DNA of 32,000 bases from Planctopirus limnophila DSM 3776 (lineage in GTDB: Bacteria > Planctomycetota > Planctomycetia > Planctomycetales > Planctomycetaceae): the NCBI RefSeq assembly GCF_000092105.1, contig NC_014148.1:2730001-2762000 (forward strand). The letters run 5' to 3'. The notes beneath the pieces are model-generated. The model ran no database searches. It was not told where the DNA came from and was given only the letters and a program-made list of their open reading frames with translations. Position 1 is the first letter of the stretch, and the number at the start of each line of letters is the position of its first letter. Shown in pieces: positions 1 to 31,038 of this stretch. The position numbers and the translations under genes were made by a program.

Positions 1-339
1 AGGCATTGTGTGATTGAATTGGGCAAGTGGATCTTCGAGATCTGATGGCTTCAAATCTACAAGAAAAGTGCATACACGATTCGAGGACAGGCCCTTTGCC
101 AATGCACCAGACTCAAACAAAATCCAGGGGCGCTGACGATTTTCTTGGGTCAAGCAAACGATGCCAACTGACGTATCTTGCAGCTGGTCATGAATTTCGC
201 TGAACCACAAGGCACCACGATCGATGTCACGAGTGGAAAGCCATGGTCGGGTTGCCTGAAGGACACATTTGATCCAATCATTAAGAATCTCTGCGATTGC
301 TCGACTTCTCTCACCCGACCAACTGATAAACACCTTCAT
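1..339 (-). CDS. TIR-domain protein, N-terminal 113 codons only. The 3' end lies beyond the left window edge, so there is no stop in view and it is absent from the ORF track.
   Basis: Hand translation of the minus strand from ATG 339..337 gives MKVFISWSGERSRAIAEILNDWIKCVLQATRPWLSTRDIDRGALWFSEIHDQLQDTSVGIVCLTQENRQRPWILFESGALAKGLSSNRVCTFLVDLKPSDLEDPLAQFNHTMP, open through base 1. GGAG at 349..346 sits 6 nt before the ATG. The pattern FISWS..DI..G..W..I....GIVCLT.EN...PWI.FE.GA is the bacterial TIR/TIR-like signature, including the conserved Glu. Confidence 0.8.
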   Translation of the reverse strand, partial: MKVFISWSGERSRAIAEILNDWIKCVLQATRPWLSTRDIDRGALWFSEIHDQLQDTSVGIVCLTQENRQRPWILFESGALAKGLSSNRVCTFLVDLKPSDLEDPLAQFNHTMP

Positions 340-480
340 AGAATACTCCGAGATACTTCACATCCCCTAAACAGGGTTCACTACTGACATCAAAACCAAC
401 TCTAGTCTAGTCGCAATTAGCGCAGCGTTTCGCCACCTGAAACACCAACAAAGCACGAAGTTCACACCGCTTATCTATTC

Positions 481-927
481 TCAACGAGTGATACACTTCA
501 AAATCTTCTCGTTTACCTGAATCTTTTTCTCCTTCTGCCGACCTGTCAAAGCTCGCTTTCTACGAATATCATTATAGAACTTGTACTCCCAATCATTAAT
601 AAATCGCTGCTGGTGAGCGTATTCAATCATTGCGACATTGAAAGACCTTCCGGCATCCTCCCTCACATATCTAACCGACTTAAAAAGGTCATTTGACGCG
701 ATTTGAAGAAAGTTATTAACACATACATTTCCAACCTCTGTGGTGACGTTAGTAAACTGATTAACAATCACACATATCTCATTGATCGGATACTGTCCGC
801 ACGGGCATGTCAACGAAGTTTCCGAATGGTAGATCTGGTATAGACGCCACTCACTCCTCGCATGCTCCCAATCATCCGATTGACTGAGACATAAAATATG
901 TTCGTGAAGCTTCTGTTGGTTCGACAT
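481..927 (-). CDS. Hypothetical Cys/His-containing small protein of 148 aa from ATG 927. The ORF-track version 481..963 starts at a TTG.
   Basis: This is the only long ORF in the gap between the S8 peptidase stop (1035) and the TIR start (339), and it is on the same strand. It contains HEHILC and CPCGQYPINEIC...VGNVCVNNF, a possible metal-binding cluster, followed by a basic C-terminal helix. I do not recognise the family. Confidence 0.55.
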   Translation of the reverse strand: MSNQQKLHEHILCLSQSDDWEHARSEWRLYQIYHSETSLTCPCGQYPINEICVIVNQFTNVTTEVGNVCVNNFLQIASNDLFKSVRYVREDAGRSFNVAMIEYAHQQRFINDWEYKFYNDIRRKRALTGRQKEKKIQVNEKILKCITR

Positions 928-1034
928 TTCCAGACTCAGAAAGTTCTTCCCCAAAGAGTACAATTAGAAGCCCCCACAGCTTCCACGCCAATCGCGCAAA
1001 CGAAATTGAGACTCTCCAACACACATTTCACGCC

Positions 1035-3317
1035 TCACGAACGACGACGCACACGAATTCGAGATGCAAGTCTCAGATCCTGGGCCCCCCAAGACAGTTT
1101 CTCCATCTCAGTAACCATTTCATTGTATACATTTGCCTTCCCTTCCGGGTCCCGGATTGTAAGAAGCAAAACAAGCTTTTGGGGTTCCTTACACCTGAAA
1201 CCATCACGATTAAGAATCTCTAGATGAAGACGCCAGTTCTTACAAATAGGCCCTGCGGTAAAGGCCCGATAATAAAACTTCAGAGGAGACCACTTAAACC
1301 CCTCAGAGACCATACGAGCCTCACCACCCCGAGTTACGTCTTTTGGAGCGGGCCTGAGTTGAGGATTATATACTTCTTTCCCCGTTTCGTTATTCTTCAT
1401 TACTGTCCCTAAACTCGCCGTCAGGTTCGTACGACAGTACTCCATACCGAATCGCGCATCTGTAGGCGGATCGTAAGCTAAAGTCATGAAGACTTCCGCT
1501 CGCAATCCTTTATTGGGAATGACGAGAGAACTTGGCATGGGGAATTGATGCTTCTCAAAGAAATGGCGATCAGTCAATTCAGCATGAAAGATGACCGTAG
1601 CCGAGGACTGCGTGCAATTCAGAATTTCTGACACATCTCCCGGACTCCCAAAACCCTTATAACGAACATCCAGGGCATCTGGGCAGCCTGATCTAAGAAA
1701 TGCAGAATGGGCAATCAGTCCTTTGACATATGCCGGAGACAAATTGCCTTCTGGCTCAAGCTCGCGATATATGTTCGCGGCAATGTTTGAAATATGAGGA
1801 GCAGCAAAACTGGTACCAATATTCTCGGCCAGATTTCCGTGGCCATCTGTAGATACTACGCCGCATTGCAAGCAATCCCCAGTTTCATCACAGTTGCCAC
1901 CGTAGTGACTGACTTCTGGTTTAATGTAGAAATGTGGCGCGGGACCACGTCGCGAAAATCCCGAAGGTTCATCAATTCCAACACATGACGATTGATTACT
2001 GATGTGAGCGATCGATCCAACGGTCAATCCTCGAACGGAATCAGCAGGAGGACAGATTCGATCGTTCTCACCCAAGTTCTCTGGTGGCCAAGTGCGGAGT
2101 GGAGGTGTTTCATAGTTTCCTGCTGCAATTACAAACAGTACATTGCGCTTCTTTGCAATTGAGTCCAGCTTACAGGCCAGAAGCGAAAACCTCGCATCAG
2201 AACATGGTGTTGCTTGGCCTAGGGAAAGATTCCAAACTCTCACATCGGAGTGGTCGCGAACTGCATTCTCGATTACAGTAATTAAATCATACTCTGAGAT
2301 TTGACCACTAGCATCAATGGCAACCACGTCGACAACACGAGACTGCGCTCTTGGGAATCGATTATCTGCGCCATTTAGTGCCCGACTATTCGCGATTAGG
2401 CCAGCAACAAAACTTCCGTGATTGAAGTCGTGTTGCGTTTTGACCACCACATCACGTCTCGCCACGTATTCTTGAAGTCGCCTGTTGGTTGGATCTGTAC
2501 CACTGTCAATCACCCCAACAAGTCCATATTCCTTAGCTGGATCAAAACTTGGGAACCGCCTTTCGTCGAGTTTACCTACAATATTTGCCGCCGTACGAAC
2601 AAGGCGAAACTCAGGAAACAGTCCTATGCTTTGCGTACCCACGAAGGCTGCCAACGCTTTTATGGACTTCGTTGTCACGGATTTCACGGCGTAGACAGTT
2701 ACATCATCACCATAGTCAACCGCCTCAAGATCTGGCAACGCCTCTGATCTCGCAACAGCCTTAAACTCCTGCTCAATAAGCTTATCAACTGCGTCAACGC
2801 CGTGACGAAACAGGCGAATTCGAATGGGAGCGTTCTTCCTTTTTGCCGTTTTGGCTATATACTCTGGCGAATACCCTTCAAGTGCATCTTTTGCCTTAAA
2901 CGCAAGAAGGCGATTAAGTGTCGAAATGTTCGCTTGATGCTTTTTTGTTTGACCCTGCTCAATCTCATAAGCCAACGCCCTGAGCCCTTCGGAACTCACA
3001 CTTACCAACAACTCTGATGGACCTTCAACACCAATGATGGGGCAGGTTTCAGAATTAAACAAAGTGCCTGGCCGGTATGATTTGGCCCCTGCCTCAGGTT
3101 TCAGCAGGACTTTTGCTACGGCAGGGATTGTAGGATGTTCTGCGAACGAAGCCGAAAACTCCTTTCGCAGAGATGCAACTTCGCTTGAATACTTCTTGCG
3201 CAACTCTTGCGTGACAGGCTCAAAGATTTTTGTTTCGCCCCCAGCATTGGGATCGAGACGATAATCCAAGTCTTTACGGGCCAAAACCACCTTCATGGGT
3301 AAGAATATTTTAGGCAC
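1035..3317 (-). CDS. Subtilisin-like serine peptidase (MEROPS S8), IetS-like, with an N-terminal extension of about 260 aa and a C-terminal domain of about 200 aa
   Basis: The catalytic triad motifs appear in S8 order: Asp in GVIDSGTD, His in HGSFVAGLIA, Ser in GTSFAAPHISN. The oxyanion Asn lies in VIAAGNY. The start is GTG 3317..3315, preceded by AGGAG at 3329..3325 with 7-nt spacing. It overlaps the ATPase stop by 8 nt. An alternative ATG lies at 3296. Confidence 0.85.
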   Translation of the reverse strand: MPKIFLPMKVVLARKDLDYRLDPNAGGETKIFEPVTQELRKKYSSEVASLRKEFSASFAEHPTIPAVAKVLLKPEAGAKSYRPGTLFNSETCPIIGVEGPSELLVSVSSEGLRALAYEIEQGQTKKHQANISTLNRLLAFKAKDALEGYSPEYIAKTAKRKNAPIRIRLFRHGVDAVDKLIEQEFKAVARSEALPDLEAVDYGDDVTVYAVKSVTTKSIKALAAFVGTQSIGLFPEFRLVRTAANIVGKLDERRFPSFDPAKEYGLVGVIDSGTDPTNRRLQEYVARRDVVVKTQHDFNHGSFVAGLIANSRALNGADNRFPRAQSRVVDVVAIDASGQISEYDLITVIENAVRDHSDVRVWNLSLGQATPCSDARFSLLACKLDSIAKKRNVLFVIAAGNYETPPLRTWPPENLGENDRICPPADSVRGLTVGSIAHISNQSSCVGIDEPSGFSRRGPAPHFYIKPEVSHYGGNCDETGDCLQCGVVSTDGHGNLAENIGTSFAAPHISNIAANIYRELEPEGNLSPAYVKGLIAHSAFLRSGCPDALDVRYKGFGSPGDVSEILNCTQSSATVIFHAELTDRHFFEKHQFPMPSSLVIPNKGLRAEVFMTLAYDPPTDARFGMEYCRTNLTASLGTVMKNNETGKEVYNPQLRPAPKDVTRGGEARMVSEGFKWSPLKFYYRAFTAGPICKNWRLHLEILNRDGFRCKEPQKLVLLLTIRDPEGKANVYNEMVTEMEKLSWGAQDLRLASRIRVRRRS

Positions 3318-4413
3318 TAGCGGGCTCCTGATTCAAACGTTCTGATATATAGGACTGTGAAAGCCCGAAGAGCTCAGACAGCTTCTTCTGAGTGAACCGT
3401 TTCTTGTCAACCTTCCGAATCGCTCGAAGAATTGCAGCCACGTCGGATGTACCAGTAAAACGAGCACACATCTCAACTAAGTTGACTGATTGCTGATCGT
3501 TGACCACAGCCTCTCTTACCAGGTTTTCAGTAATGTCTTTAAGCTGTGCACCCGACATCCCCTCACTCAGGCACGCAGCGACCTCGACGTCCTGTGCTGT
3601 TGCAAACCGCCCCAGTACAAACCGTATCAGCTCCTGTCTCGCAGCCAGACCGGGAGTACTCATCTCGATTTTGTAGGCAAATCGACGCCAAACGGCAGGA
3701 TCAAGTAGGTGCGGATGATTGGTCGCCGCGAGAAGAACATGGTCCCGCCCCATTGCATCGATGTTTTGCATCAAACTAATCACAACTCGTTTCAACTCAC
3801 CTAATTCCCGATCGTCATCTCTCATCTTTGCCAACGCGTCGAACTCGTCAAGAAACAACACGCATGGACGTGATGCAGCGTGTTCGAAAAGTTGCCGTAT
3901 ATTCTTTGCAGTACTTCCTAGATAGGAAGAAATTAGTGCATCCGACCTAGCTGTGATGAGGGGATACTTCAGTTGTGCTGCAATATATCTAGCCAACTGA
4001 GTTTTCCCGACCCCTGGGGGACCATAAATAAGGAGAGATGGTGAGATACCGACACCGTTGGCAATCAGCCGATCAGCAGCCCTAAAATATAACAGGAATT
4101 GATCGACTACTTTCTGAACATCCTCCGAAAGGAAGACCGAAACATCGGCTTCAACTGGTCGCTCCTCGTCGGCAACTGGAATTCTTGATTCACCGTCCAC
4201 TGGCAGCAGTGCCTGGCCACCTTGTCGAGCTAGAGAGATGTTCGAAGCAGAACTCTTTCCGACAATCTGCCTCATACGCTTGGCAGCCGCCAACTCGCCG
4301 CCCGATTCGAGCCTGCGGGCAAGTGATTCCGAGTAGGCCAGCACTTTTTCGTGGTCGCCACTGGCAGCTCCCTCGATGATTTTATTGATGTCAAAAAGGT
4401 AGTCACGAATCAT
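3310..4413 (-). CDS. AAA+ ATPase (classic clade), IetA-like, with a C-terminal helix-turn-helix-like tail
   Basis: Walker A is GPPGVGKT and Walker B is VLFLDEFD. Sensor-1 is LLAATN and the Arg-finger region is VWRRF. The C-terminal KKLSELFGLSQSYISERL looks like an XRE-type HTH. The start is ATG 4413, with AAGGGG 7 nt upstream. Confidence 0.85.
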   Translation of the reverse strand: MIRDYLFDINKIIEGAASGDHEKVLAYSESLARRLESGGELAAAKRMRQIVGKSSASNISLARQGGQALLPVDGESRIPVADEERPVEADVSVFLSEDVQKVVDQFLLYFRAADRLIANGVGISPSLLIYGPPGVGKTQLARYIAAQLKYPLITARSDALISSYLGSTAKNIRQLFEHAASRPCVLFLDEFDALAKMRDDDRELGELKRVVISLMQNIDAMGRDHVLLAATNHPHLLDPAVWRRFAYKIEMSTPGLAARQELIRFVLGRFATAQDVEVAACLSEGMSGAQLKDITENLVREAVVNDQQSVNLVEMCARFTGTSDVAAILRAIRKVDKKRFTQKKLSELFGLSQSYISERLNQEPASA

Positions 4414-4460
4414 GCAGCGGCCCCTTGCGCGAATTTTCTCTGTTCACCAGCTCAAACGAC

Positions 4461-4489
4461 ATCGTATCGGCGATATTATCGTCAGTCAA
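4461..4489 (-). promoter_or_regulatory. Candidate sigma70-like promoter for the ATPase/S8 operon
   Basis: The minus strand reads TTGACT (4489..4484), a 17-nt spacer, then TACGAT (4466..4461), about 48 nt upstream of ATG 4413. The host sigma specificity is unknown. Confidence 0.3.
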
Positions 4490-4522
4490 TGCGATATTTT
4501 CGCAACAATTACCGATATTTTT
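4471..4522. promoter_or_regulatory. Three direct repeats of CGATATT(A/T)T(C/T) spaced exactly 21 bp apart; operator-like array
   Basis: The copies are CGATATTATC at 4471, CGATATTTTC at 4492 and CGATATTTTT at 4513. Copy 1 is the palindrome CGATA-T-TATCG (4471..4481). Copies 1 and 2 flank or overlap the candidate -35/spacer. A fourth copy, CGATATTATA, lies at 4805..4814. Confidence 0.45.
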
Positions 4523-4908
4523 GTCGGCTTTTTGGGCTTTCCGCTGCTGCTGTGTCTTCCTGGTTCTCCGCTAAGGTCAAAACCTGTCCTTTCTGACTTG
4601 AGTTTTGTTCGGATTAATTTGTTCGACCGAGACGACGTTTCGCAAAAATCCGATGCAGCCTCATTTTGAAGGAAGAGGGTTTCTCGGATTTTTGTCTTGC
4701 ACATCTCTCCAATTCATATTGGCACTCAAGTGCGACCAGCTTACCCGGTGGATTCTTGGTTCAATTTTGAACATGTAAGCGATTGTGATTGTACTCACGT
4801 ATTGCGATATTATAACTTGAGCATTCGCACCACCATATCAACAGCTCTCGAATAATACAGTTATAAGGAACCCATTCTCTTAATCGTCTCTATATATCAT
4901 TTTTAGCC

Positions 4909-5232
4909 TTAACTATTTGGCCCGTTAAATATTGTCGGCTTTGTGGGTGTCACTGCAATAACGGCTTCATACTTCACTCCAATTGCTATTGCCGCGATTT
5001 CAAGAACAAATAACGTTTTCGTGATAATATGCTGCTGAGTGAGGCTTTCAGGAAATGTTGCGACCCATGTCGTCGTAAGATTAGTTTTTTCCCACGGAGC
5101 AGATATATATTCATAGAATGTGTCTCTCTGAGTATCGCTTGCACTCTTGAGATCAATTGTTAGGATCGCGTTAATGATTTGAACCTTATAACTGAGGAGT
5201 TGATGTTCACGAGCGGGATTCCTTAGTTTCAC
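4909..5232 (-). CDS. Hypothetical protein, 107 aa, GTG start, AT-rich
   Basis: It is the only ORF in the AT-rich stretch immediately downstream (28 nt) of the glycosyltransferase stop. It has no ATG start, no clear SD and no recognisable motif. Confidence 0.3.
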   Translation of the reverse strand: MKLRNPAREHQLLSYKVQIINAILTIDLKSASDTQRDTFYEYISAPWEKTNLTTTWVATFPESLTQQHIITKTLFVLEIAAIAIGVKYEAVIAVTPTKPTIFNGPNS

Positions 5233-5259: not shown

Positions 5260-6885
5260 TCAGTCGCCAGATAGAACAAGCACCATGTCATGTACGTATT
5301 TCTCTGCATGAGTGATCAAGGATTTGTGAATTTCCCGCATTCGCTCGGGCGTGATGTAGTGGGCGGTCACCTGTTGGTTTTCGGGCTTGGGAGTGGTCTG
5401 TTGCCCCGCCTGAAACTGCCTGCTTTTGGTCAGGCTGATTCCGGCAGCGTGCAGCACCTGGGCGACGTGCACATCTTCCTGCCAATGCTGCTGGGGCTCG
5501 CTGGCTGCCACAATCGACACGGCTTTGGGGCTCAATAAATAACCGGCCCCGCCGCTGGCTGTCTCGAATGGCCTGCCCGCCGCCACACGCTGCGGGGTGG
5601 GAGCCCCGACGTAATCGGCGGTCATCCGGTCGCGGGCCAAGATTCGGGCCACATGCACATAGGTGTCATCGTCGCACTTCAGCACTCTGGCGAAATTTCG
5701 GCTTGATTGCAGCCACCGGCAAAACCAGATCGTTTTTTCGGTGAGATGCTGGTAATCGTCCGGGCAGGGGAGCAAAAGCATATCGCCCCGTTTGTCCGGC
5801 AGTTCAACCAGATCAGGACGGCCCACCAGAAACACCAGTTCCACATCGGCGGGCAAGTCTTTTCCCCAAGTCTGGCGAATGGCTTCCCGCTTCTCGCGAT
5901 ACCGGGCTTGCTCGTTGTCGGCTGACAGTACCCCAATGATCAGCCGTCGATAGTCGCTTTTTGGGATCGCTGCGGGCGCGGGTTGTAAAGTGGCAGAGGC
6001 TGGCATCTGCTGCAGCCGGTCGAGTGCCCCCACTTCGCGGGCAATCTCGTTGAATCGCTCGATCGAGAGCCGCCCGGGGGCTGTGTAGTTGGCCTGAATT
6101 TGCTGGAACGATGGGTAAGCGAGTTCGGCAAACCCCAGCAGATCATTCCGGGCTTTGACTGACCAGGCAAACCCCTTGTAGGGTGATCCGTCCGCATAGC
6201 CGTACAGATGAATCCAGCGAAGCCACGGCAGGCATTTCACAGAACGCCCGCCTTGCCGGTATTTTTCCGGGATGTAGGGCTCAATGCCACCATGGCCGCG
6301 AACGTCAGGATGAAAGCCCAGAAATGAATCCCGCTTGGCGACGAAACAGCCGGTTCCACAGGAATTGATTTCGAATGGGGCCGCGTGGGGGTTGTCGGCT
6401 GATGGGTGAGTCGCCCAGTCGCCCCAGTTGCCGTTGGATCCATATCTGGGCAGGTAATGCGTGCCGACGATCGCGGGTTTCCCATCTGCGTTGATCAGCC
6501 GCCGCCGCAAGTTCGGGCCGAAGTACAGCCCGTCGTCAATGGTCGCTGCGAACGCCACCAGCCGGACCAGAACACCCGTATCGAGGATCACATGGGAATC
6601 AATGCAGCAGACGGCATTGCCGGTCGCATGATCGAACACCGCTTGCTTGGCCGGGCCTGCTCCCGGAGGTTCGGGCAGGTGCAGATATCGAGCGTTCGCA
6701 ATGTCTGCAACATGTTCCCGTTCGGCTTTGATGTGGGTTTCCTTGGCCGATTGGGAAATGACCAGAATTTCCACCTGATCCGTCAGGCCCAGGTCGCGGC
6801 GCGTGCGTTGCAGATCAATCAACGTGAACCACAAAGCCCGCTGATCGTCACAAGTGGGAATGCCGATGGTGAGTGCTGGATTCAT
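5260..6885 (-). CDS. Two-domain glycosyltransferase: N-terminal GT-A/GT2-like domain fused to a C-terminal GT31 (beta-1,3-galactosyltransferase/Fringe-like) domain, 541 aa
   Basis: ATG 6885..6883 lies 2 nt after the fibre stop (6890..6888). The N-terminal domain has TIGIPTCDD, the CIDSHV (DxH) motif and GTGCFVAKRDSF. The C-terminal domain has IIGVLSADNEQARYREKREAIRQTWG, PDDYQHLTEKT and KCDDDTYV, matching the three classic GT31 motifs. Confidence 0.85.
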   Translation of the reverse strand: MNPALTIGIPTCDDQRALWFTLIDLQRTRRDLGLTDQVEILVISQSAKETHIKAEREHVADIANARYLHLPEPPGAGPAKQAVFDHATGNAVCCIDSHVILDTGVLVRLVAFAATIDDGLYFGPNLRRRLINADGKPAIVGTHYLPRYGSNGNWGDWATHPSADNPHAAPFEINSCGTGCFVAKRDSFLGFHPDVRGHGGIEPYIPEKYRQGGRSVKCLPWLRWIHLYGYADGSPYKGFAWSVKARNDLLGFAELAYPSFQQIQANYTAPGRLSIERFNEIAREVGALDRLQQMPASATLQPAPAAIPKSDYRRLIIGVLSADNEQARYREKREAIRQTWGKDLPADVELVFLVGRPDLVELPDKRGDMLLLPCPDDYQHLTEKTIWFCRWLQSSRNFARVLKCDDDTYVHVARILARDRMTADYVGAPTPQRVAAGRPFETASGGAGYLLSPKAVSIVAASEPQQHWQEDVHVAQVLHAAGISLTKSRQFQAGQQTTPKPENQQVTAHYITPERMREIHKSLITHAEKYVHDMVLVLSGD

Positions 6886-6887
6886 GG

Positions 6888-8174
6888 TTATGGTTCCTCG
6901 GGTGGCGGGCCTTCCGTTCCCGCTGATGTTCCTGTTCCGCCCCCTTCGCATGGGTAACTGGCTGTTGTTCCGCAAGGAACGGTCAAGGTGGCAGCAGTTC
7001 CAGGCACGACAAGTTGTGCCGGGCACGATCCACCCCCGGAGACACTGCAGGACGTGGCGAGGTTGTAGAGACTGTGAGTCACGCCACCGACCACACACCA
7101 GGCAGCGGCCGCCAGCGTGTAACTGCAAGTCCCTGTCGCAGCCGTCCCGGTTCCGCTCGTTGTCCCTGTCCCTGTTGGGGCCGTGGTGCCAGTGCCGCCG
7201 CTTGTTCCCGTTCCTGTGCCTGTGGGTGCCGTTGTCCCAGTGCCAGTGCTGGATGGATCGCCTGTGTTTGTCCCCTCGGTGGGTGGCGATGTTGGGCCGC
7301 TTGTCCCTGTCCCGCTGGTCGTTCCGGTGCCTGTGGGTGGAGTTGTTCCGGTTCCGGTCGTTGTCCCCGTTCCCGATGGCGTGCCTGTGCCACTCGAACA
7401 ATCGGCGGGGGCCGGGCCGCAAGGCGTGGTCACAATCTGACCGGGATATTCGCCCGGGTAATCAGGCGGGCAGGCTTCACAGCCATCTTGGCCGGAACAC
7501 ATGCCACCACTGCCGACAACCCAGGGGAACACACCCGTCCACTCCCAAGCCGTGGAGGCCAGGGGCGGACAGGTGGCTGTTGTCCCTGTGCCGGTATCTG
7601 TTCCCGTTCCGGTATCTGTGCCAGTGCCCGTTCCAGTGCTAGTGCTCGGCGTGCAATCGCCGCATGTGACCGGGACAAGCTCCAGTGTGGCTGGCCAGAG
7701 TGGTGTCATTTCATCAGGGGCCGGAGTCGCGGTCAGTGTGCGGGTGATCAAGCAATCCATGTCGTTCGTGCGGAAGGTGACGGTCTGACCCTGCAGGCTC
7801 AAGACAACCACCGGCGGCTCCGCCGATTCATTCATGCTGATCGACATGTAACGCAAGAGAGAGATGTCGGCAGAACTGGTTGTCCAGCCGCAATCACTCG
7901 ATCGGGAAAAGCATCGCGTTCCGTTGAACTGCTCCAGTTCGCCCCCAAAGCCGCTGGCCTCGATGCGGAAACACTCCGTTTCGCAATCAGTGCAGGGGGG
8001 CTCCTCATCCCATGGGCCGGTGAAGTCGATCGGGGGCCAGGGGCCGCCGACTGGGACGCCTTCGCCCTGGGGCCGTTGGAGTTTCCACAAACGCTCAATG
8101 TCCACGTCGTGGATGTTCCCCTTGCGCTCGAGGGCATTCAGTCGCTGCTCGAATGAACGGAAGTCTGCGGGCAT
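6888..8174 (-). CDS. Tail fibre / receptor-binding candidate with Thr-Gly repeat linkers and Cys-rich modules (428 aa from ATG 8174; alternative GTG at 8183)
   Basis: It is the last virion-type gene after the tape measure and tail-tip genes. AGGAG lies 8 nt upstream of ATG 8174. It has an N-terminal coiled segment, two (T-G)n tracts and at least 20 Cys. Confidence 0.7.
   Translation of the reverse strand: MPADFRSFEQRLNALERKGNIHDVDIERLWKLQRPQGEGVPVGGPWPPIDFTGPWDEEPPCTDCETECFRIEASGFGGELEQFNGTRCFSRSSDCGWTTSSADISLLRYMSISMNESAEPPVVVLSLQGQTVTFRTNDMDCLITRTLTATPAPDEMTPLWPATLELVPVTCGDCTPSTSTGTGTGTDTGTGTDTGTGTTATCPPLASTAWEWTGVFPWVVGSGGMCSGQDGCEACPPDYPGEYPGQIVTTPCGPAPADCSSGTGTPSGTGTTTGTGTTPPTGTGTTSGTGTSGPTSPPTEGTNTGDPSSTGTGTTAPTGTGTGTSGGTGTTAPTGTGTTSGTGTAATGTCSYTLAAAAWCVVGGVTHSLYNLATSCSVSGGGSCPAQLVVPGTAATLTVPCGTTASYPCEGGGTGTSAGTEGPPPEEP
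7128..7397 (-). repeat. Long degenerate (ACN GGN)n tract encoding about 90 aa of Thr-Gly(-Ser-Pro) low-complexity linker
   Basis: Residues 263-352 of the fibre read SGTGTPSGTGTTTGTGTTPPTGTGTTSGTGTSGP...TGTGTTAPTGTGTGTSGGTGTTAPTGTGTTSGTGTAATGT. Codons vary, so this is not an exact DNA tandem repeat. Confidence 0.85.
7575..7649 (-). repeat. Short Thr-Gly(-Asp) tract in the fibre gene
   Basis: Residues 179-203 read PSTSTGTGTGTDTGTGTDTGTGTTA. Confidence 0.8.
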
Positions 8175-20613: not shown

Positions 20614-21528
20614 TTAGGTCACCGCTGGCTCATTGTTCTTGAGCGCTTCCGTCAACATGATCGGGACGTTGCCCACTTCGGTGGGGATGGGTGCGGGAGT
20701 ACCGGTGTTGTTGGTCGCTGTGCGGCTCTTGCGGAGTTCGTTCAGCGAATTCGTGTTCATCAGGAACATGTCGGGCCGGACATCGGCAGGGAACTTGGCC
20801 AGCAGATCGAACATCAGGTCATCGTTCAGCGTGTGACCCGCTGTTCCATCGAGGTTCGCAATTCGGGCCGCACTGTGGCGAGAACCAAGCTGGAGACCCA
20901 CACGGGTGTTGATTTCCTGACAGATTCCCGTGTAGGGCTTGCCATTGGCATCGTAGAGCGTCTGCTCTCGTTCGGGAGTCACGACCAGGCCCGTTCCATC
21001 CTGAGCCCAGAGCCACTGGACATGCTGCGGGCCGAACTTCACCGCCCAGACGGAACGGCCACCAGCTCCTTCGGCGTCCAGTGTCATGCCGGTGAGATCG
21101 TATTGAGCAACGAGGCCTGGAAAGCCTTTGGCATCGTTGTTGACGCCATAATAAAACTGCATGGCCAGATGGATCATGGCTCCCAACATGATCCCCTGAG
21201 CCTCGCGAGCCATGGCCGCTGCCGGGCCGTCTTCATCGGCCATGGCGACCGCTTTGTCCATGGCCCACTGCGGGTTGAAAATCATCGCTTCAAACGTCTT
21301 GTTGACGTAATTGTTTTTCAATCGATCCGTACCTTCGTTGGCACTGCGGAAGCCACCTCTGGGGACTTCGTTTCGCACCAGCACAGGGTAGCTGATCCCT
21401 TTGATGGTGCGGGCCGCTCCCAGTTGCAGCTCCGGAGTGGCAACAACGGTTTCTTCAATCAGCCCGACTGTGCGGTCAGAGCCGTTTTTCTTGGCGATAT
21501 CCAAGAGAGTGATCATTCCCGTGGGCAT
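20614..21528 (-). CDS. Major capsid protein, 304 aa
   Basis: ATG 21528 has AAAGGA upstream. It follows the protease/scaffold gene. The N-terminus MPTGMITLLDIAKKNGSDRTVGLIEE and the overall length fit phage major capsid proteins. An HK97 fold is assumed, not verified. Confidence 0.75.
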   Translation of the reverse strand: MPTGMITLLDIAKKNGSDRTVGLIEETVVATPELQLGAARTIKGISYPVLVRNEVPRGGFRSANEGTDRLKNNYVNKTFEAMIFNPQWAMDKAVAMADEDGPAAAMAREAQGIMLGAMIHLAMQFYYGVNNDAKGFPGLVAQYDLTGMTLDAEGAGGRSVWAVKFGPQHVQWLWAQDGTGLVVTPEREQTLYDANGKPYTGICQEINTRVGLQLGSRHSAARIANLDGTAGHTLNDDLMFDLLAKFPADVRPDMFLMNTNSLNELRKSRTATNNTGTPAPIPTEVGNVPIMLTEALKNNEPAVT

Positions 21529-21624
21529 GGCGAAATCCTTTCTGGCCCACATGGGCCGACACTTGGCAAAACATCAAACGTGAACAACGGACTGACGGAA
21601 CACGGGTGGCGGAAAGCGTGCGGC

Positions 21625-24814: not shown

Positions 24815-26926
24815 TTACCAGGTCATTTCATACGCCTTGGGTTCCCGCTTCTTGCGGCCCTTGGGCTTGGTGCTGGCCGCTTCCTCGCTGGCCAATGAAA
24901 GTTTGATTTTCCCAGTCGTCGAAGCCGCCACGCAGGCCATTTTCAGGCAGTCGGCGAAGTGGTTGTCACTGAGTCCAGGCCGCAAATCAAAGCGGTCGTG
25001 AATCTCGCCCGTCGTGGTGGTGAATGTGCCGGTCTTGATTTCGGCGTCGATGTGGTCGCCGAACATCTGGTGCGGGGAAGGGCGTTCTATCCAGAGTGTG
25101 AGGGCTCCCCGAGTCCCCACAGGGACGGTCAACCGGTCGCGGTGGAACTTGATCCAGAGATTGGAATCGAAGGTGCATTCCCGCACCTTCCGGCCCTTGG
25201 CCACTGGTGGAATGCACCAGCCGTTCCCCTGTTGATGCCTAACGTCATTGATGTACCGCAGCGGTTTCCCGCTTCCTTTGGCTGGCATGAGTTGCGACTT
25301 GAAGGGCGACTCCGCGCAGAACTTCCGCACGGTGTCGGTCTCAAAACCCATGTCAACAAAAGCCCGCTCAATGCGCAAGGTTTCCCCATCGGGTTTCTTC
25401 CATTCGCGGGATAACTTTTCAGTCATCAGTTGCGACAGGCCTTGATAAATGCGGCCCGGGCGGTCAGTTCCCCGGAACTTGCGAGAGAGTGTCCGGCGGG
25501 CATCGGCCAGCGAATAGTAGGCCCGTTCCTGATCCGGGAAAGAGCCGTAGTCAATCACCGCCCCCGAGAAGTTGGCCGCCCAGGCCACGATCACATAAAA
25601 GAGCAGTTCGCCTTGCACGTCGGTGCCCATGGTCAGCAGGACAGTTTCCGGCGGCACCACACCGCGAGCATATCCACTCAGCCGCTCTTTGATGGCATGA
25701 GCCGACAGGGCGGCATCATCTTCCTGAGCGGCGGCGGGGTCGTTCTGGTATTCGGCAAAGAAGACATAGCGGTCTTTGAAGAACAGGTGCATGGCCGATT
25801 GAATGGCACTGATTTCATCTTCTTCGAAGCGTTCCTCCCAGGCCGCCGTGAAACCTTCTTCCAACTCGGTCTGATGCTTCCGATAGAACGCATTCCGCAA
25901 CTGGCCCCCGTCGTTCAAGTGATGGCTCTGCACCATGACATCGGCATACTCCAGCCACCGTTGCCACTGCTCCCCCTCCAGCTTGGGCATGGCCAGCATG
26001 GCACACCGCTTGCCGTGCCACTCCGGGTGGAGCTTGTGATCGAGGAAGCGGTCAGAGAGGTCTTTGGGGGCAATCACTGTGCAGCACATGACGGCAGATA
26101 TCTTTTGCCCTGGGCCTGCCAGACCCAGCACAGCTCCGGAAATGAGACGCTCCCGTTTGTCGTTCTGGTCGGGGCTCACTGCTGATTTGTCCGTCTGCGG
26201 ATCATCGAGCAGCACAAAGCCCGGGCGGATTTTCTTCCCATCGGGGAGACGATGCTGCAGGCCTCGAATGCGGCCCGTCAGACCAGCCACGCCGATGATG
26301 GCTCCAGCGGCTTTGCTGCCCGGGATGTTGGGCAACACAATCCGGGTTTTCGTGAAGAGCATCCGCACGGGCTTTCCGGCGAATAACAATCTTCGCTGCG
26401 GCACTCCTTCCAGCCGGGCGATCGGGTAGCAGGTCTCGGGGTAATCGGCCAGGAGCAGCTCGTTGGTTTCCAACTCGTCTTTGATCCCGGCCAGCATCTC
26501 TTTGGCGGCCCCTTCCGTGGCACCGATCAACACAAAGAAATGTTCATAGCCGTGGAGGATGGCCCACAGGCAGACCCACAGAGCCAGTGAGGTCTTGCCA
26601 CTCCCTCGGGGCATGGCGAGACAATAGCAGCCTCCATCGGTAATGGTGCTCTGCATGGTCGCGAGCACTTCGCGGTGGTCGGGAGACCAGCCCAAGCAAA
26701 ACGTCTTGGCCCCATACGTTTCGCAGAAGAATTGCAGATCATGGGCGGCCCGCTCTCGGCGTGCCGGTTCGGCCACCTCGGGCATCTCCGGGGCGATGTC
26801 GCGAGCCTGGGCCGATTGCTCTCGCTGGCGTTGGCCTTCGCGGGCTTTCTTCTGCTCGTACCGCTCTTGCTTGTTCTTTGGATCAGGTGCTGGCGGCTCG
26901 GCATCCTTTCCAGCAAAGAAGCTCAA
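24815..26926 (-). CDS. Terminase large subunit, 703 aa
   Basis: Walker A is AMPRGSGKTS and Walker B is FVLLDDPQ. The C-terminal half is nuclease-like. It lies upstream of the gpW-like and portal genes. The start is TTG 26926, overlapping the upstream stop. Confidence 0.85.
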   Translation of the reverse strand: MSFFAGKDAEPPAPDPKNKQERYEQKKAREGQRQREQSAQARDIAPEMPEVAEPARRERAAHDLQFFCETYGAKTFCLGWSPDHREVLATMQSTITDGGCYCLAMPRGSGKTSLALWVCLWAILHGYEHFFVLIGATEGAAKEMLAGIKDELETNELLLADYPETCYPIARLEGVPQRRLLFAGKPVRMLFTKTRIVLPNIPGSKAAGAIIGVAGLTGRIRGLQHRLPDGKKIRPGFVLLDDPQTDKSAVSPDQNDKRERLISGAVLGLAGPGQKISAVMCCTVIAPKDLSDRFLDHKLHPEWHGKRCAMLAMPKLEGEQWQRWLEYADVMVQSHHLNDGGQLRNAFYRKHQTELEEGFTAAWEERFEEDEISAIQSAMHLFFKDRYVFFAEYQNDPAAAQEDDAALSAHAIKERLSGYARGVVPPETVLLTMGTDVQGELLFYVIVAWAANFSGAVIDYGSFPDQERAYYSLADARRTLSRKFRGTDRPGRIYQGLSQLMTEKLSREWKKPDGETLRIERAFVDMGFETDTVRKFCAESPFKSQLMPAKGSGKPLRYINDVRHQQGNGWCIPPVAKGRKVRECTFDSNLWIKFHRDRLTVPVGTRGALTLWIERPSPHQMFGDHIDAEIKTGTFTTTTGEIHDRFDLRPGLSDNHFADCLKMACVAASTTGKIKLSLASEEAASTKPKGRKKREPKAYEMTW

Positions 26927-27898: not shown

Positions 27899-28077
27899 TT
27901 CGGCGCCCCGGTCACTGAAAAGGCAGGCAAGAAAGTGTGTGAACTCTCTCGACCACAACGTAAGGAATCACGAAAAACTACCAAACTGGGACCCACAACG
28001 ACGTACTTGATCATAAAAAATATGTCATACACAACATGAAAAAAAATGCCAACAATGCTTAACTTCTCTCTAACTTT

Positions 28078-31038
28078 CTAATCGGGGATCATTCCAAAAA
28101 AACCCAACTGAACAGAAACCTTTATGTCGAGCGGAAGACCTAACAGCTGCCACTTTTTTTTATCGTTACTCTTCAAAACGACAGTTGGAAATCCATTTTC
28201 GTATGACCTTCTGCAATACCCCGATTTTCCTTTCTCTGGGACAACATTTCCTTCTCCATCAATTTGAAAACTCCCATCCCCTTGTGAGTTTAACTCAAAC
28301 ATTGCAGCACGATTAGCACCATTTGTATCAACCAGAAAAGCATGTCCAACGAACGATGAGATTGCTTTCATCTCATCTGACTGGCCATTACTTACAACCA
28401 ATGAATGCACTTCGTTAATAAACTTCATTCGAGCGAACTCCTTAGTGAATACACTTCGTACTTCTCTGCACATTTGACTGACTACATCTGAAACATCGCC
28501 TGGCCACATTTCTAAGATGAGATCAGATGCCATTCTCTTTCCGAAAACACTTGGTGACCCAGCCAGTATTCGCGCACAGAAGACAACGGCAGTTGCCCTC
28601 AAGAAATGGTCGGATTTCTTCGAGAGAAGCCTAAACTCCCCAAATACTCTTTTGAGAGTCTCCTCAGACAGGACATAAGGGCCAACATGGCAAAGCGCTC
28701 TGACGGAAGGAATACGAGTCTCATCATCAGTCAATAGTTGTGCAAGATCATCGACGCACTCGACAAACTCGCTTGGTGACTGGCAGCGTGCAATTGCGGA
28801 AGCTACGCCTCGCTTCACAGTAGTGCCTCCCGCTCGCAATTTCTCCACGGCATCCTTAACCGAAAGCCCAAAAAAATCTCGACCCTCCCATGGACGTTTG
28901 ACTTCAGGAACTAGCGGGGGTTCTGGTTGCTCGTCAAGGACTGTATCCCGGGAGGACGTTAGCACATCAATAAACTCCCTCGCAGTTCTCATAATCTGTG
29001 CAATAGGCTCTAGACCAAAAGTAGCATCCCTGAAGTCCCACTTGTTCGAATCGGACTGCTCACTAAGAAGTGAGCCATTCACACATTTATCCAAAAGCGA
29101 CCTTCGAACACCTTCCATCCAGGCTCGCGCTTCGCTTGCACGAGGGTGAGAATTGTTTTCCCTAAGTTCAGCTTCAAGAAGGGAGAGAATTCTAAAGTCC
29201 GTGGCTCCATCCGCTCTTCCTTCATAGCCTACCGAACCAACGACTCCAAAGGCCTTCGCATCCTTCTCATCCTGGAACGGTAGGGCAAAGCCATTACTCG
29301 GGAATGTCGATGTATCGGATCTAAAGGACTCCCACGTTAATGGCCTCAAGTGCGTGCTGTAGCACTTTCGCCGCTCGCCGTGCCTTGCTTCAGGTTTAGC
29401 TCCTGCAGGCAACGGATCTGGGGGAAGGTAGGTCGGACCGGTCGAATAGGCGTAAACGCGATTCCCCTTGAGACCCAGCGCCCATGTGTACACGCCGGAA
29501 TAGAATCGATTTGTCCGATAATTCGTAGATCGAAAAGCAAATGAGTAGGTCCATACCTCGACTCTCTGTCTCGCCGCCTCTGCCATCAATTCAGGCGAAA
29601 TTGAACCGGCGAGAACTTCCCAGACGCTGAAGAGATCCCCGAACGAAATGACTGCACCAATTCCCAATGGTGTTTCTGTTCGGAAATACTCCTGGCGACT
29701 CATAAGGATGAAAGCGCCTCCGATCTTGTCTTCGTCCGGCGTAAGCCATAAGGGCTCTTCGGCAGTTTTGAGAATTATCTCAGGCCAGTTTCGTTCCTTC
29801 CCTGCGCGATACAATGCCTCAACGGGAATGTGTTCATCACCGTCGTTTCCGACTCTTGAAACCATGTCAGTGGCGGTTGGAACGTCATTTAGCTGGCTAT
29901 CATTAGTCAATATTGGAATACCATTACAACCGAACTCAAAGCCTTTCGCATTGTCAATCATTGAATTTAGAATGTCATGTGGATATGCAATTGTCGCATT
30001 TTTGTATGGTGCTACGCGGTAGAGGGCATCAGCGTTCTCATTTTGAAGGTCATAATATGATTTTACTCCATCTCGATAGGGCGTTGCACCCTCACCAAAA
30101 TGGAGTAAGTGCTTTTCAGCATCGACCCAATCAGCAGGGCTTGCGAGGCTTTCGGGAAGTATCTTTCCATTTTGGAATGCTCGGAACGGAGCAGTCAGCT
30201 TGCCATCCTTCAGAGTTCCTTTAAAGAGCAATGGTGGCCAGATATCCAAGGACACGGTATTGCATTCGTGTTGTTGCATGTCCTCGTAGTATGCACTCAT
30301 ATGCGTTTCGGATAGGCCACCCTTTTGGACACATGGTCGGACTTGTGAAGTGTTGATTTTACTTGGTTCGAAAAAAAAGCCGAAGACCGCGTGGCATCTT
30401 GGGAGAGGCACTTTTCTGGTTGTGATCGTGAGGTTCACTTGCTCTCGGTAGGTCGTGCCGTCGGCAAGCGTCGCACAAATGGTGATGGTTGCGGAAAGTG
30501 ATGGTCGATAGATGGGAGTGTCGAGCTTGTTGAAGATGAACCATTTTCCGGTTGAGCGTCCAGCTTCCAGTGATTCGTTGACTGAGTTGGGAGCTACGCT
30601 GCACAGGTTGTCGCTGTAGACGAAGGTTGGTTGCCAAGTGCAATGTGTGTTTGGTATCGGAAGCTGACCGCGAGGAGTTATATAGAACAGGGAAAAGATG
30701 CCAGGCCCATTGATGTTATCATCAGCCCATTTGAAGGACTCAACCCAGACCCGGCGCACGGTCTTCCGTAAGAAGATGCCAATCTGGAATGAAGTCCGCT
30801 CATTTTGAAATCGCGTTAGCGAGATGGCTCCTCCGTTCAGCAACTCATCAGTTGTGGGAGTGTAATCTTGAAAGATCGGTTCATTGATTTTTGGGATGAA
30901 GAGTTGAAAGGGTTTGTTGCTGGAGGGGAGCGAGCCGAGACTGTTTTGAGGCGGGGCAATTGTGTCGAGCACTTTTTTATCCCAAAAGATTTTTACCGAC
31001 GAGCCTTGTTGCAACTCGTCCGAGTGTTCTATGTTCAC
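28078..31038 (-). CDS. Large AT-rich cargo protein, 986 aa: GH123/DUF4091-like N-terminal beta-sandwich and central domain, HEAT/ARM-like helical repeats, and a small C-terminal beta domain
   Basis: It is a single uninterrupted ORF in an island of about 40-45% GC. The N-terminal VKIFWDKKVLD...ISLTRFQNERTSFQIGIFL matches the characteristic start of GH123/DUF4091-type glycoside-hydrolase-like proteins. Residues around 740-870 look like HEAT repeats. It has a GTG start and no SD. Confidence 0.7.
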   Translation of the reverse strand: MNIEHSDELQQGSSVKIFWDKKVLDTIAPPQNSLGSLPSSNKPFQLFIPKINEPIFQDYTPTTDELLNGGAISLTRFQNERTSFQIGIFLRKTVRRVWVESFKWADDNINGPGIFSLFYITPRGQLPIPNTHCTWQPTFVYSDNLCSVAPNSVNESLEAGRSTGKWFIFNKLDTPIYRPSLSATITICATLADGTTYREQVNLTITTRKVPLPRCHAVFGFFFEPSKINTSQVRPCVQKGGLSETHMSAYYEDMQQHECNTVSLDIWPPLLFKGTLKDGKLTAPFRAFQNGKILPESLASPADWVDAEKHLLHFGEGATPYRDGVKSYYDLQNENADALYRVAPYKNATIAYPHDILNSMIDNAKGFEFGCNGIPILTNDSQLNDVPTATDMVSRVGNDGDEHIPVEALYRAGKERNWPEIILKTAEEPLWLTPDEDKIGGAFILMSRQEYFRTETPLGIGAVISFGDLFSVWEVLAGSISPELMAEAARQRVEVWTYSFAFRSTNYRTNRFYSGVYTWALGLKGNRVYAYSTGPTYLPPDPLPAGAKPEARHGERRKCYSTHLRPLTWESFRSDTSTFPSNGFALPFQDEKDAKAFGVVGSVGYEGRADGATDFRILSLLEAELRENNSHPRASEARAWMEGVRRSLLDKCVNGSLLSEQSDSNKWDFRDATFGLEPIAQIMRTAREFIDVLTSSRDTVLDEQPEPPLVPEVKRPWEGRDFFGLSVKDAVEKLRAGGTTVKRGVASAIARCQSPSEFVECVDDLAQLLTDDETRIPSVRALCHVGPYVLSEETLKRVFGEFRLLSKKSDHFLRATAVVFCARILAGSPSVFGKRMASDLILEMWPGDVSDVVSQMCREVRSVFTKEFARMKFINEVHSLVVSNGQSDEMKAISSFVGHAFLVDTNGANRAAMFELNSQGDGSFQIDGEGNVVPEKGKSGYCRRSYENGFPTVVLKSNDKKKWQLLGLPLDIKVSVQLGFFGMIPD

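Follow-up and report, generated by a model that had tools for sequence, protein, structure and literature searches.

A question is posed by a 32,000-nt stretch of Planctopirus limnophila DSM 3776 (NC_014148.1, positions 2,730,001 to 2,762,000; the whole stretch is called the window here, and coordinates count from its first letter): what is an AAA+ ATPase gene, overlapping an S8 subtilase gene, doing at the end of a phage structural module? The answer proposed here is that the two genes, ietA and ietS, are a horizontally acquired IetAS pair of the anti-phage clade, carried as prophage cargo, which would repress its own promoter and abort infections through release of the protease; taken as a whole, we hold this reading to be probable, though well short of assured. 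The genes and the translation signal between them are the following.

3310..4413, minus strand: ietA, 367-residue classic-clade AAA+ ATPase, putative antitoxin and regulator (ATG start; full PADLOC IetA profile)
1035..3317, minus strand: ietS, 760-residue S8 subtilase, putative toxin and effector (GTG start; full PADLOC IetS profile)
3325..3329, minus strand: Shine-Dalgarno sequence AGGAG of ietS, within the 3′ end of ietA, with 7 nt between it and GTG at 3317-3315

In the list of open reading frames (ORFs) the two genes share 8 nt (3310-3317), with the ietA stop codon, TAA, at 3312-3310 of the minus strand. A preliminary description made from the sequence alone had claimed both this 8-nt overlap of an ATPase gene with a 760-residue peptidase gene and a GTG start at 3317 behind AGGAG, and both claims stand, AGGAG lying at 3329-3325, 7 nt ahead of the GTG. 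The position of AGGAG within the end of ietA, together with the overlap, suggests translational coupling of the two genes, and ietA and ietS overlap likewise, by 8-11 nt, in relatives.

A divergent member of the IetAS anti-phage clade

The IetAS anti-phage system (PADLOC PDLC02196/PDLC02197; NCBIfam IteA/IteS) was reportedly described by Gao et al. in 2020. Both proteins of the window match its PADLOC profiles end to end, IetA with an expectation value (E) of 4.2e-130 over positions 3-371 of the 374 in PDLC02196, and IetS with E 2.6e-251 over positions 5-749 of the 749 in PDLC02197. The PADLOC check, which the preliminary description had proposed, is thereby done and agrees with the IetA/IetS-type pair claimed there. 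The best NCBIfam matches are IteA_antiphage ('anti-phage ATPase IteA') and IteS_antiphage ('S8 family anti-phage peptidase IteS'). Because these alignments are full-length and score under the curated cut-offs, the pair is best described, as judged from sequence, as a divergent, full-length member of the IetAS anti-phage clade and no strict equivalog, that is, as an ordinary module of a known system. It shares with that clade an ATPase of ~370 residues with a C-terminal helix-turn-helix (HTH), followed by an S8 peptidase of ~750 residues, the same N- and C-terminal domains and overlapping genes; it differs from it in its divergence below the NCBIfam cut-offs, and in having its own upstream repeat word, AATATCG, and its own recognition helix, SQSY.

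The pairing of the two genes is conserved. Eighty genome loci with IetA relatives were fetched (designated by L numbers), from Planctomycetota, Verrucomicrobiota, Proteobacteria, Acidobacteriota, Cyanobacteria, Bacteroidota, Spirochaetia, Firmicutes and one archaeon, and in 73 of them the sequence extends at least ~2.3 kb beyond ietA. Of these 73, 70 have a gene for full-length IetS directly 3′ of ietA on the same strand, and ietS also follows ietA directly in each of the 17 IMG/VR viral contigs whose IetA is full-length. The preliminary description had named two outcomes that would speak against it, a failure of the proteins to cluster with IetA/IetS and a lack of co-conservation, and neither was observed. 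Three IetA homologues may be decaying or orphan copies: two with 6 kb of downstream sequence have no IetS (L053, and L074, whose IetA is itself truncated), and a third, also with 6 kb downstream, is followed by just an 80-residue IetS fragment (L045). The closest relatives (IetA 73% and 64% identical) come from Planctomycetota assemblies; their two genes overlap by the same 8-11 nt, and their surroundings are unrelated and non-phage.

Two details of the preliminary description had to be revised. It took the HTH tail of the ATPase and the long extensions of the protease as additions of this copy. The tail is conserved in 12 aligned homologues and lies within the PADLOC IetA profile, and tblastn searches against the relatives covered IetS residues ~6-747 in nearly all loci; on this comparison of sequences both are family-wide traits, and only when set against the founding IetA of pTiC58 does the tail count as an addition.

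That founding pair, ietA/ietS of the Agrobacterium plasmid pTiC58, was reportedly characterized by Yamamoto et al. in 2009, and its features were taken here from the plasmid sequence record. As in the window, an AAA+ ATPase gene stands directly upstream of an S8 peptidase gene, with the same logic of a toxin (protease) and an antitoxin (ATPase). However, pTiC58 IetA has 328 residues, without the HTH tail and without an upstream repeat array, and aligns with IetA of the window in the AAA core only (30% identity, E 2e-36), whereas pTiC58 IetS (836 residues) is barely alignable (BLASTP E 0.002 over 179 residues) and best matches different PADLOC IetS profiles. The proteins of the two pairs are thus not clearly alignable over their full length, and since the pTiC58 ATPase is tail-less, its protease almost unalignable and its profiles others, the sequences place the window pair in the anti-phage clade and the pTiC58 pair in a different one.

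Further pairs invite comparison. S026/S025 of the genomic island SGI1 and TA132/133 of Mycoplasma mycoides share the AAA-ATPase/subtilase pairing and toxin-antitoxin behavior shown experimentally, the Mycoplasma proteins (353 and 757 residues) also being near the window pair in size, a likeness drawn from their description; unlike the pair considered here, they were investigated for stability or persistence, as modules of a genomic island and of a chromosome. The ietHAS system has IetA and IetS components together with the SNF2 helicase IetH (NAR 2026, PMC13069673), whereas no helicase gene adjoins the window pair, the flanking ORFs (one of 107 residues, one of 148, and one encoding a TIR-TM protein) being unrelated. 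Prophage carriage of ietAS is not new: a co-occurrence study noted a possible prophage location in E. coli, and in Escherichia phage vB_EcoS-683R6 (ON470595.1), the IetS of which is 29% identical to that of the window, the pair lies in the lambdoid region between the replication genes and Q. The IetA of this phage (L001 4779-5933; PADLOC IetA E 8.9e-143) carries the GenBank label 'cell division protein FtsH'.

An intact ATPase and a protease modeled as zymogen-like

The preliminary description had also claimed a classic-clade AAA+ ATPase with Walker A, Walker B, sensor-1 and Arg finger, together with an intact Asp/His/Asn/Ser set in the peptidase, and the integrity of both proteins is borne out. 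The Pfam AAA domain of IetA covers residues 127-251 (E 8.7e-31). In the alignment of 12 sequences, Walker A (GPPGVGKT, residues 131-138) is invariant, as are D189 and E190 of Walker B (LFLDEFD, 186-192), N232 of sensor-1 (AATN, 229-232) and R243 and R244 of the Arg fingers (WRRF, 242-245); pore-loop-1 ([YF]LG, 164-166) is a conserved aromatic-hydrophobic-Gly motif. The nearest solved structures, by sequence and by fold, are the classic-clade proteins Rix7, p97/Cdc48, FtsH, the proteasomal Rpt subunits and Vps4, which supports the placing of IetA in this clade. An AlphaFold2 (AF2) model (mean predicted local distance difference test score, pLDDT, 83) has an N-terminal three-helix bundle (residues 3-56), a low-confidence linker (55-67), an AAA+ module (~97-304) and a C-terminal helical domain ending in an HTH with short helices at 342-349 and 353-361. 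The tail motif FTxxxLxxxFxxSxxxVSxxL is kept among the aligned homologues. The region that encodes the HTH is the following.

3328..3402, minus strand: C-terminal HTH of IetA, residues 338-362, KRFTQKKLSELFGLSQSYISERLNQ (sub-threshold HTH_3 match, homologue motif, AF2 helices)

In IetS, the Pfam Peptidase_S8 domain spans residues 266-542 (E 8.4e-32), and D271, H300 and S503 of the Asp/His/Ser triad and the oxyanion N401 are invariant in 22 homologues. The AF2 model (pLDDT 89, predicted template modeling score 0.91) has two N-terminal beta-alpha-beta-beta-alpha-beta units (~66-139 and ~165-233), the catalytic S8 core (~260-545) and a C-terminal beta-sandwich (~570-725). The beta-alpha-beta-beta-alpha-beta arrangement is the fold of subtilase propeptides and inhibitors. 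The top folds in the PDB are unprocessed pro-subtilases with C-terminal beta domains, namely ProN-Tk-SP (E 1e-25, 611 aligned columns), KP-43, pro-Tk-subtilisin and PCSK9. Because its nearest folds are unprocessed pro-subtilases and its N-terminal units have the propeptide fold, the modeled IetS looks like a latent, zymogen-like cytoplasmic protease with propeptide-like N-terminal domains.

Periodic repeats upstream of ietA

The region upstream of ietA in the window contains a short array of direct repeats and a candidate promoter.

4519-4513, 4498-4492 and 4477-4471 (4471..4519), minus strand: three direct repeats AATATCG, one every 21 nt exactly, which the HTH of IetA is proposed to bind as operator sites (iterons)
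4489-4484 and 4466-4461 (4461..4489), minus strand: sigma-70-like promoter candidate, TTGACT - 17 nt - TACGAT (consensus scan only, 9/12 match)

Two nucleotides separate the second copy of AATATCG from the -35 hexamer downstream of it, and the spacer between -35 and -10 contains the third. A palindromic operator was considered and rejected; the upstream inverted repeats are short and not conserved, and the direct 21-nt periodicity is the real signal.

This periodicity was observed across the family in a survey of 78 non-redundant 120-nt regions upstream of ietA. Identical 6-mers recur at 20-21 nt in 188 pairs (vs ~5 in controls), at 40-42 nt in 124 (vs ~6) and at 60-63 nt in 73 (vs ~7). A chain detector for 7-mers, with one mismatch allowed and with random windows of the same loci and shuffled sequences as controls, found chains of at least three repeats in 47 of the 78 regions, compared with 5/390 random windows and 14/390 shuffles, and chains of at least four in 23/78, compared with 0/780 controls. 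Chains of at least three exact 6-mers occur in 27% of the ietA upstream regions and in 0.12% of dinucleotide shuffles. The ietA promoters of the family carry 3-6 direct repeats at 20-21-nt spacing, and distant HTH-tailed plasmid AAA/S8 pairs have 3-4 such repeats upstream. The repeat word is lineage-specific and co-varies with the recognition helix of the HTH, as follows.

Helix SQSY, repeat word TATCGC: the window and L006
Helix SQPY, repeat word TATAAC: L007 and L042
Helix SQ[SG]QVSK, repeat word TTATTCC
Helix S[LTV]G after TYR, repeat word TGTTCA: ~20 loci
Helix SEPT[IL]SRR, repeat word TTTCA[CT]
Helix SPGNVTH, repeat word TGTTTA
Helix S[TE]STISRK, repeat word [AC]TTGCA
Helix SQSNVSK, repeat word AGTAAAT

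Recognition helices are more alike between loci with a common repeat word, the observed value being reached in 61 of 5000 permutations after AAA-core identity was regressed out. Because the repeat sequence changes together with the helix, antitoxin-style autoregulation can be predicted, in which the HTH tail of IetA probably represses its own promoter through the evenly spaced repeats. Type II antitoxins autorepress their own operons, and DnaA, NtrC and PspF are AAA+ proteins with C-terminal DNA-binding domains that act on iterated sites. IetA would resemble them, by analogy, in bearing a DNA-binding domain on the neutralizing or regulatory partner and in the helical-repeat spacing of its sites at a promoter. 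It differs from DnaA and the sigma-54 activators in being a classic-clade (FtsH/Rpt/Vps4-like) AAA+ protein, so that the likeness is one of analogy and not of membership, and from type II antitoxins in that it would probably act as an antitoxin through its ATPase function rather than by simple binding. The repeat arrays that vary with the helix, and the autoregulation predicted from them, may be new; no mention of HTH/iteron autoregulation of ietAS was found in the searchable literature, the main text of Gao 2020 and Yamamoto 2009 lying outside the coverage.

A proposed mode of action and its alternatives

Genetic evidence from relatives identifies IetS as toxin and IetA as antitoxin; there, protease activity is needed for defense, a mutated ietA could not be cloned, and ietA could not be inactivated (PMC13069673). 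In B. cereus, ietAS gives an abortive-infection phenotype and becomes toxic once YosG of SPbeta is expressed, and escape mutations lie in replication-related genes (bioRxiv 10.1101/2022.08.27.505566). An AAA/S8 pair of mycoplasma is a functional toxin-antitoxin system (PMC8562856). For the window pair, its identity and integrity, its co-conservation and context, and the periodicity and covariation of the repeats are shown by the comparisons made here; we infer DNA binding, the mechanism of restraint, the trigger, the substrates and the phenotype, in the following scheme. IetS would be a cytoplasmic subtilase held latent, in zymogen-like fashion, through its built-in propeptide-like domains, and IetA, a machine of the AAA+ classic clade that runs on ATP and has its pore loop intact, would neutralize it. 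The C-terminal HTH of IetA would bind the three AATATCG repeats, two helical turns apart, around the -35 hexamer and the spacer of its own promoter, and the pair would thereby be autorepressed, like a type II toxin-antitoxin operon. When a second phage infects, a phage protein would perturb IetA or the IetA-IetS complex; IetS, then released and made in larger amount, would cleave essential proteins and abort the infection, which would protect the lysogen population. As a by-product, the pair could stabilize its carrier element.

A number of observations weigh against this scheme. Both proteins fall short of the NCBIfam equivalog cut-offs (IetA with 422.4 vs 510 bits, IetS with 672.7 vs 900 bits), and because of this the NCBI pipeline would label the pair merely 'ATP-binding protein' and 'S8 family peptidase'; a search of PDB sequences returned generic AAA+ proteins and subtilases only for the two proteins, with no IetA/IetS match. 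The tail of IetA scores 20.2 bits against Pfam HTH_3 (residues 329-361), below the gathering score of 23. The inhibition of IetS by its own propeptide-like domains, and its restraint by IetA, are inferred with the help of a structure model. Promoter-like sites in the consensus scan are no commoner than in shuffled sequence, and planctomycete promoters are poorly known. With the detector used, ~40% of loci have merely two repeats. The covariation of repeat and helix is partly confounded by shared ancestry, the corrected test being moderately significant (p~0.01), and the two tail-less 328-residue IetA genes in which no upstream array was found, those of pTiC58 and of a P. aeruginosa plasmid, are a sample of n=2 only.

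Among the alternatives, the one that survives best, though we consider it unlikely, is that the pair is mainly an addiction module, which stabilizes the prophage by post-segregational killing and has little or no anti-phage role in its host. Plasmid stability was the setting in which this toxin-antitoxin family was first described, ietAS stabilizing pTiC58 and S026/S025 stabilizing SGI1; the present pair is on a mobile element, and autorepression by the antitoxin, predicted here, is typical of addiction modules. However, the clade found here, and not that of pTiC58, is the one that the 'anti-phage' profiles of PADLOC and NCBIfam define, the pair adjoins a TIR-TM candidate defense gene and a methyltransferase gene, and relatives give abortive infection. 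Addiction and anti-phage roles are not mutually exclusive.

A second alternative concerns the repeats, to which a host or phage regulator could bind or which could be a structural feature of the promoter, with the HTH tail binding other DNA, for example incoming phage DNA as a sensor. Binding of IetA to the repeats is a prediction from sequence, the operon lacks a gene for a separate sensor, foreign DNA could in principle be sensed by an AAA+ hexamer that carries six DNA-binding tails, and the escape mutations of relatives map to replication proteins. Against this, the repeat word differs among lineages of different phyla and tracks the HTH helix, which is hard to reconcile with a shared host factor; the arrays are always within ~130 nt of the ietA start, where they often overlap TTGAC-type -35 boxes, or -10-like boxes, and in some loci the ietA start codon; and the HTH-less homologues examined have no arrays. 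We regard this alternative as improbable, and more so than addiction.

If IetA does bind its own operator, as we prefer to think, repression and restraint could be a single act. A promoter-bound AAA+ hexamer of IetA, with its HTH tails on 3-6 lineage-specific iterons, would couple repression of the operon to restraint of IetS in a DNA-anchored complex, and a phage trigger at the AAA+ pore or the N-terminal bundle would simultaneously free IetS and derepress the operon. We put this forward tentatively, as a speculation that may well be wrong; no description of such a DNA-anchored hexamer was found in the searchable literature, and, if true, it would provide a regulatory logic for the whole IetAS family.

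The mechanism of ietAS is still described as unknown (PMC13069673), as in papers up to 2026, and the comparison made here offers three handles on it: a predicted operator, made of iterons at regular intervals whose specificity would be encoded by the recognition helix of the HTH; an ATPase whose pore-loop motif is conserved, as it is in AAA+ proteins that translocate substrates; and a protease that, in its model, resembles an unprocessed zymogen. The locus itself adds a divergent, planctomycete-associated and prophage-borne copy to a known defense family, and the added value lies in a family-wide, testable hypothesis of HTH/iteron autoregulation and in the zymogen-like picture of IetS.

Prophage setting and neighboring genes

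The window is a phage structural module, with a gpA-type terminase (24815-26926), a portal, a candidate head protease, a tail tube, a GP7-type major capsid protein (20614-21552) and two large proteins (990 and 632 residues) without a family match. The exact IetA sequence was found on a contig of 5,423,075 bp, and the phage module is therefore a prophage, integrated in a chromosome of ~5.4 Mb. The GenBank phage collection gave no near-identical DNA match, and Rfam and tRNA scans of the window found nothing, so that no attachment-site tRNA is visible in it. Because the guanine-plus-cytosine (GC) content is 45-49% over positions 1-5000 vs 54-65% across the structural module, IetAS is part of a foreign, low-GC (~47%) cargo island at the tail-module end of the prophage, the GC of which is ~60%. 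That ietA and ietS are instead phage morphogenesis or lysis functions, such as a tail-fiber maturation protease and its chaperone, can be dismissed as highly improbable: they do lie directly downstream of tail, tail-fiber and glycosyltransferase genes, but their GC is ~12-15 points below that of the structural module, their homologues are mostly in non-phage chromosomal and plasmid contexts of many phyla, the phage has its own candidate head-maturation protease, and the matches to defense profiles are specific.

The neighbors of the pair within or beside the island are the following.

481-927, minus strand: 148-residue Cys-containing ORF, directly downstream of ietS with no obvious terminator between
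339-1, minus strand: 5′ end of a gene for a 273-residue TIR-TM protein, a candidate defense gene that leaves the window (PADLOC PDLC03016, E 3.9e-59; full gene at L002 14075-14896)
L002 15187-15996, just outside the window: type II-like DNA methyltransferase gene, following the TIR-TM gene

In the longer copy of the contig, the TIR-TM gene is the second one after ietS and belongs to the same low-GC island. The 148-residue ORF has no Pfam, PADLOC or NCBIfam match. Each of these two, as well as a 107-residue ORF (4909-5232), was considered as a third component of the system and rejected: none has homologues adjoining IetAS in the other fetched loci, and they are taken as independent cargo. The methyltransferase gene, too, is absent beside IetAS in those loci. 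Because its neighbors are not shared by other IetAS loci and its closest relatives stand in unrelated contexts, ietAS is, as far as gene order and sequence tell, a self-contained mobile cassette that was acquired horizontally.

Between the tail-fiber-like genes and the island lies a gene (5260-6885, minus strand) for a 541-residue protein with Glycos_transf_2 and Galactosyl_T domains; glycosyltransferase genes of this kind are used by temperate phages to modify surface glycans (lysogenic conversion). Beside it, a 428-residue Thr/Gly/Pro-rich protein with TGTGTG... runs (6888-8174, minus strand), in a high-GC stretch with long spurious ORFs on both strands, is probably a fiber or adhesin-like tail component. 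A second low-GC stretch (~28000-31000, 45-50% GC), beside the terminase region, contains a 986-residue ORF (28078-31038, minus strand) with no match in Pfam, PADLOC, PHROGs, NCBIfam or PDB sequences, which may be another piece of foreign cargo.

With IetAS, TIR-TM and a methyltransferase beside tail genes, the locus is a further example of temperate phages with small defense islands. Distant plasmid AAA/S8 pairs of A. vitis (L115), Bradyrhizobium (L116) and E. faecium (L117) also adjoin annotated defense genes, among them a Shedu nuclease, an abortive-infection protein and TIR-domain proteins flanking the pair, and the last of these echo the TIR neighbor found in the window.

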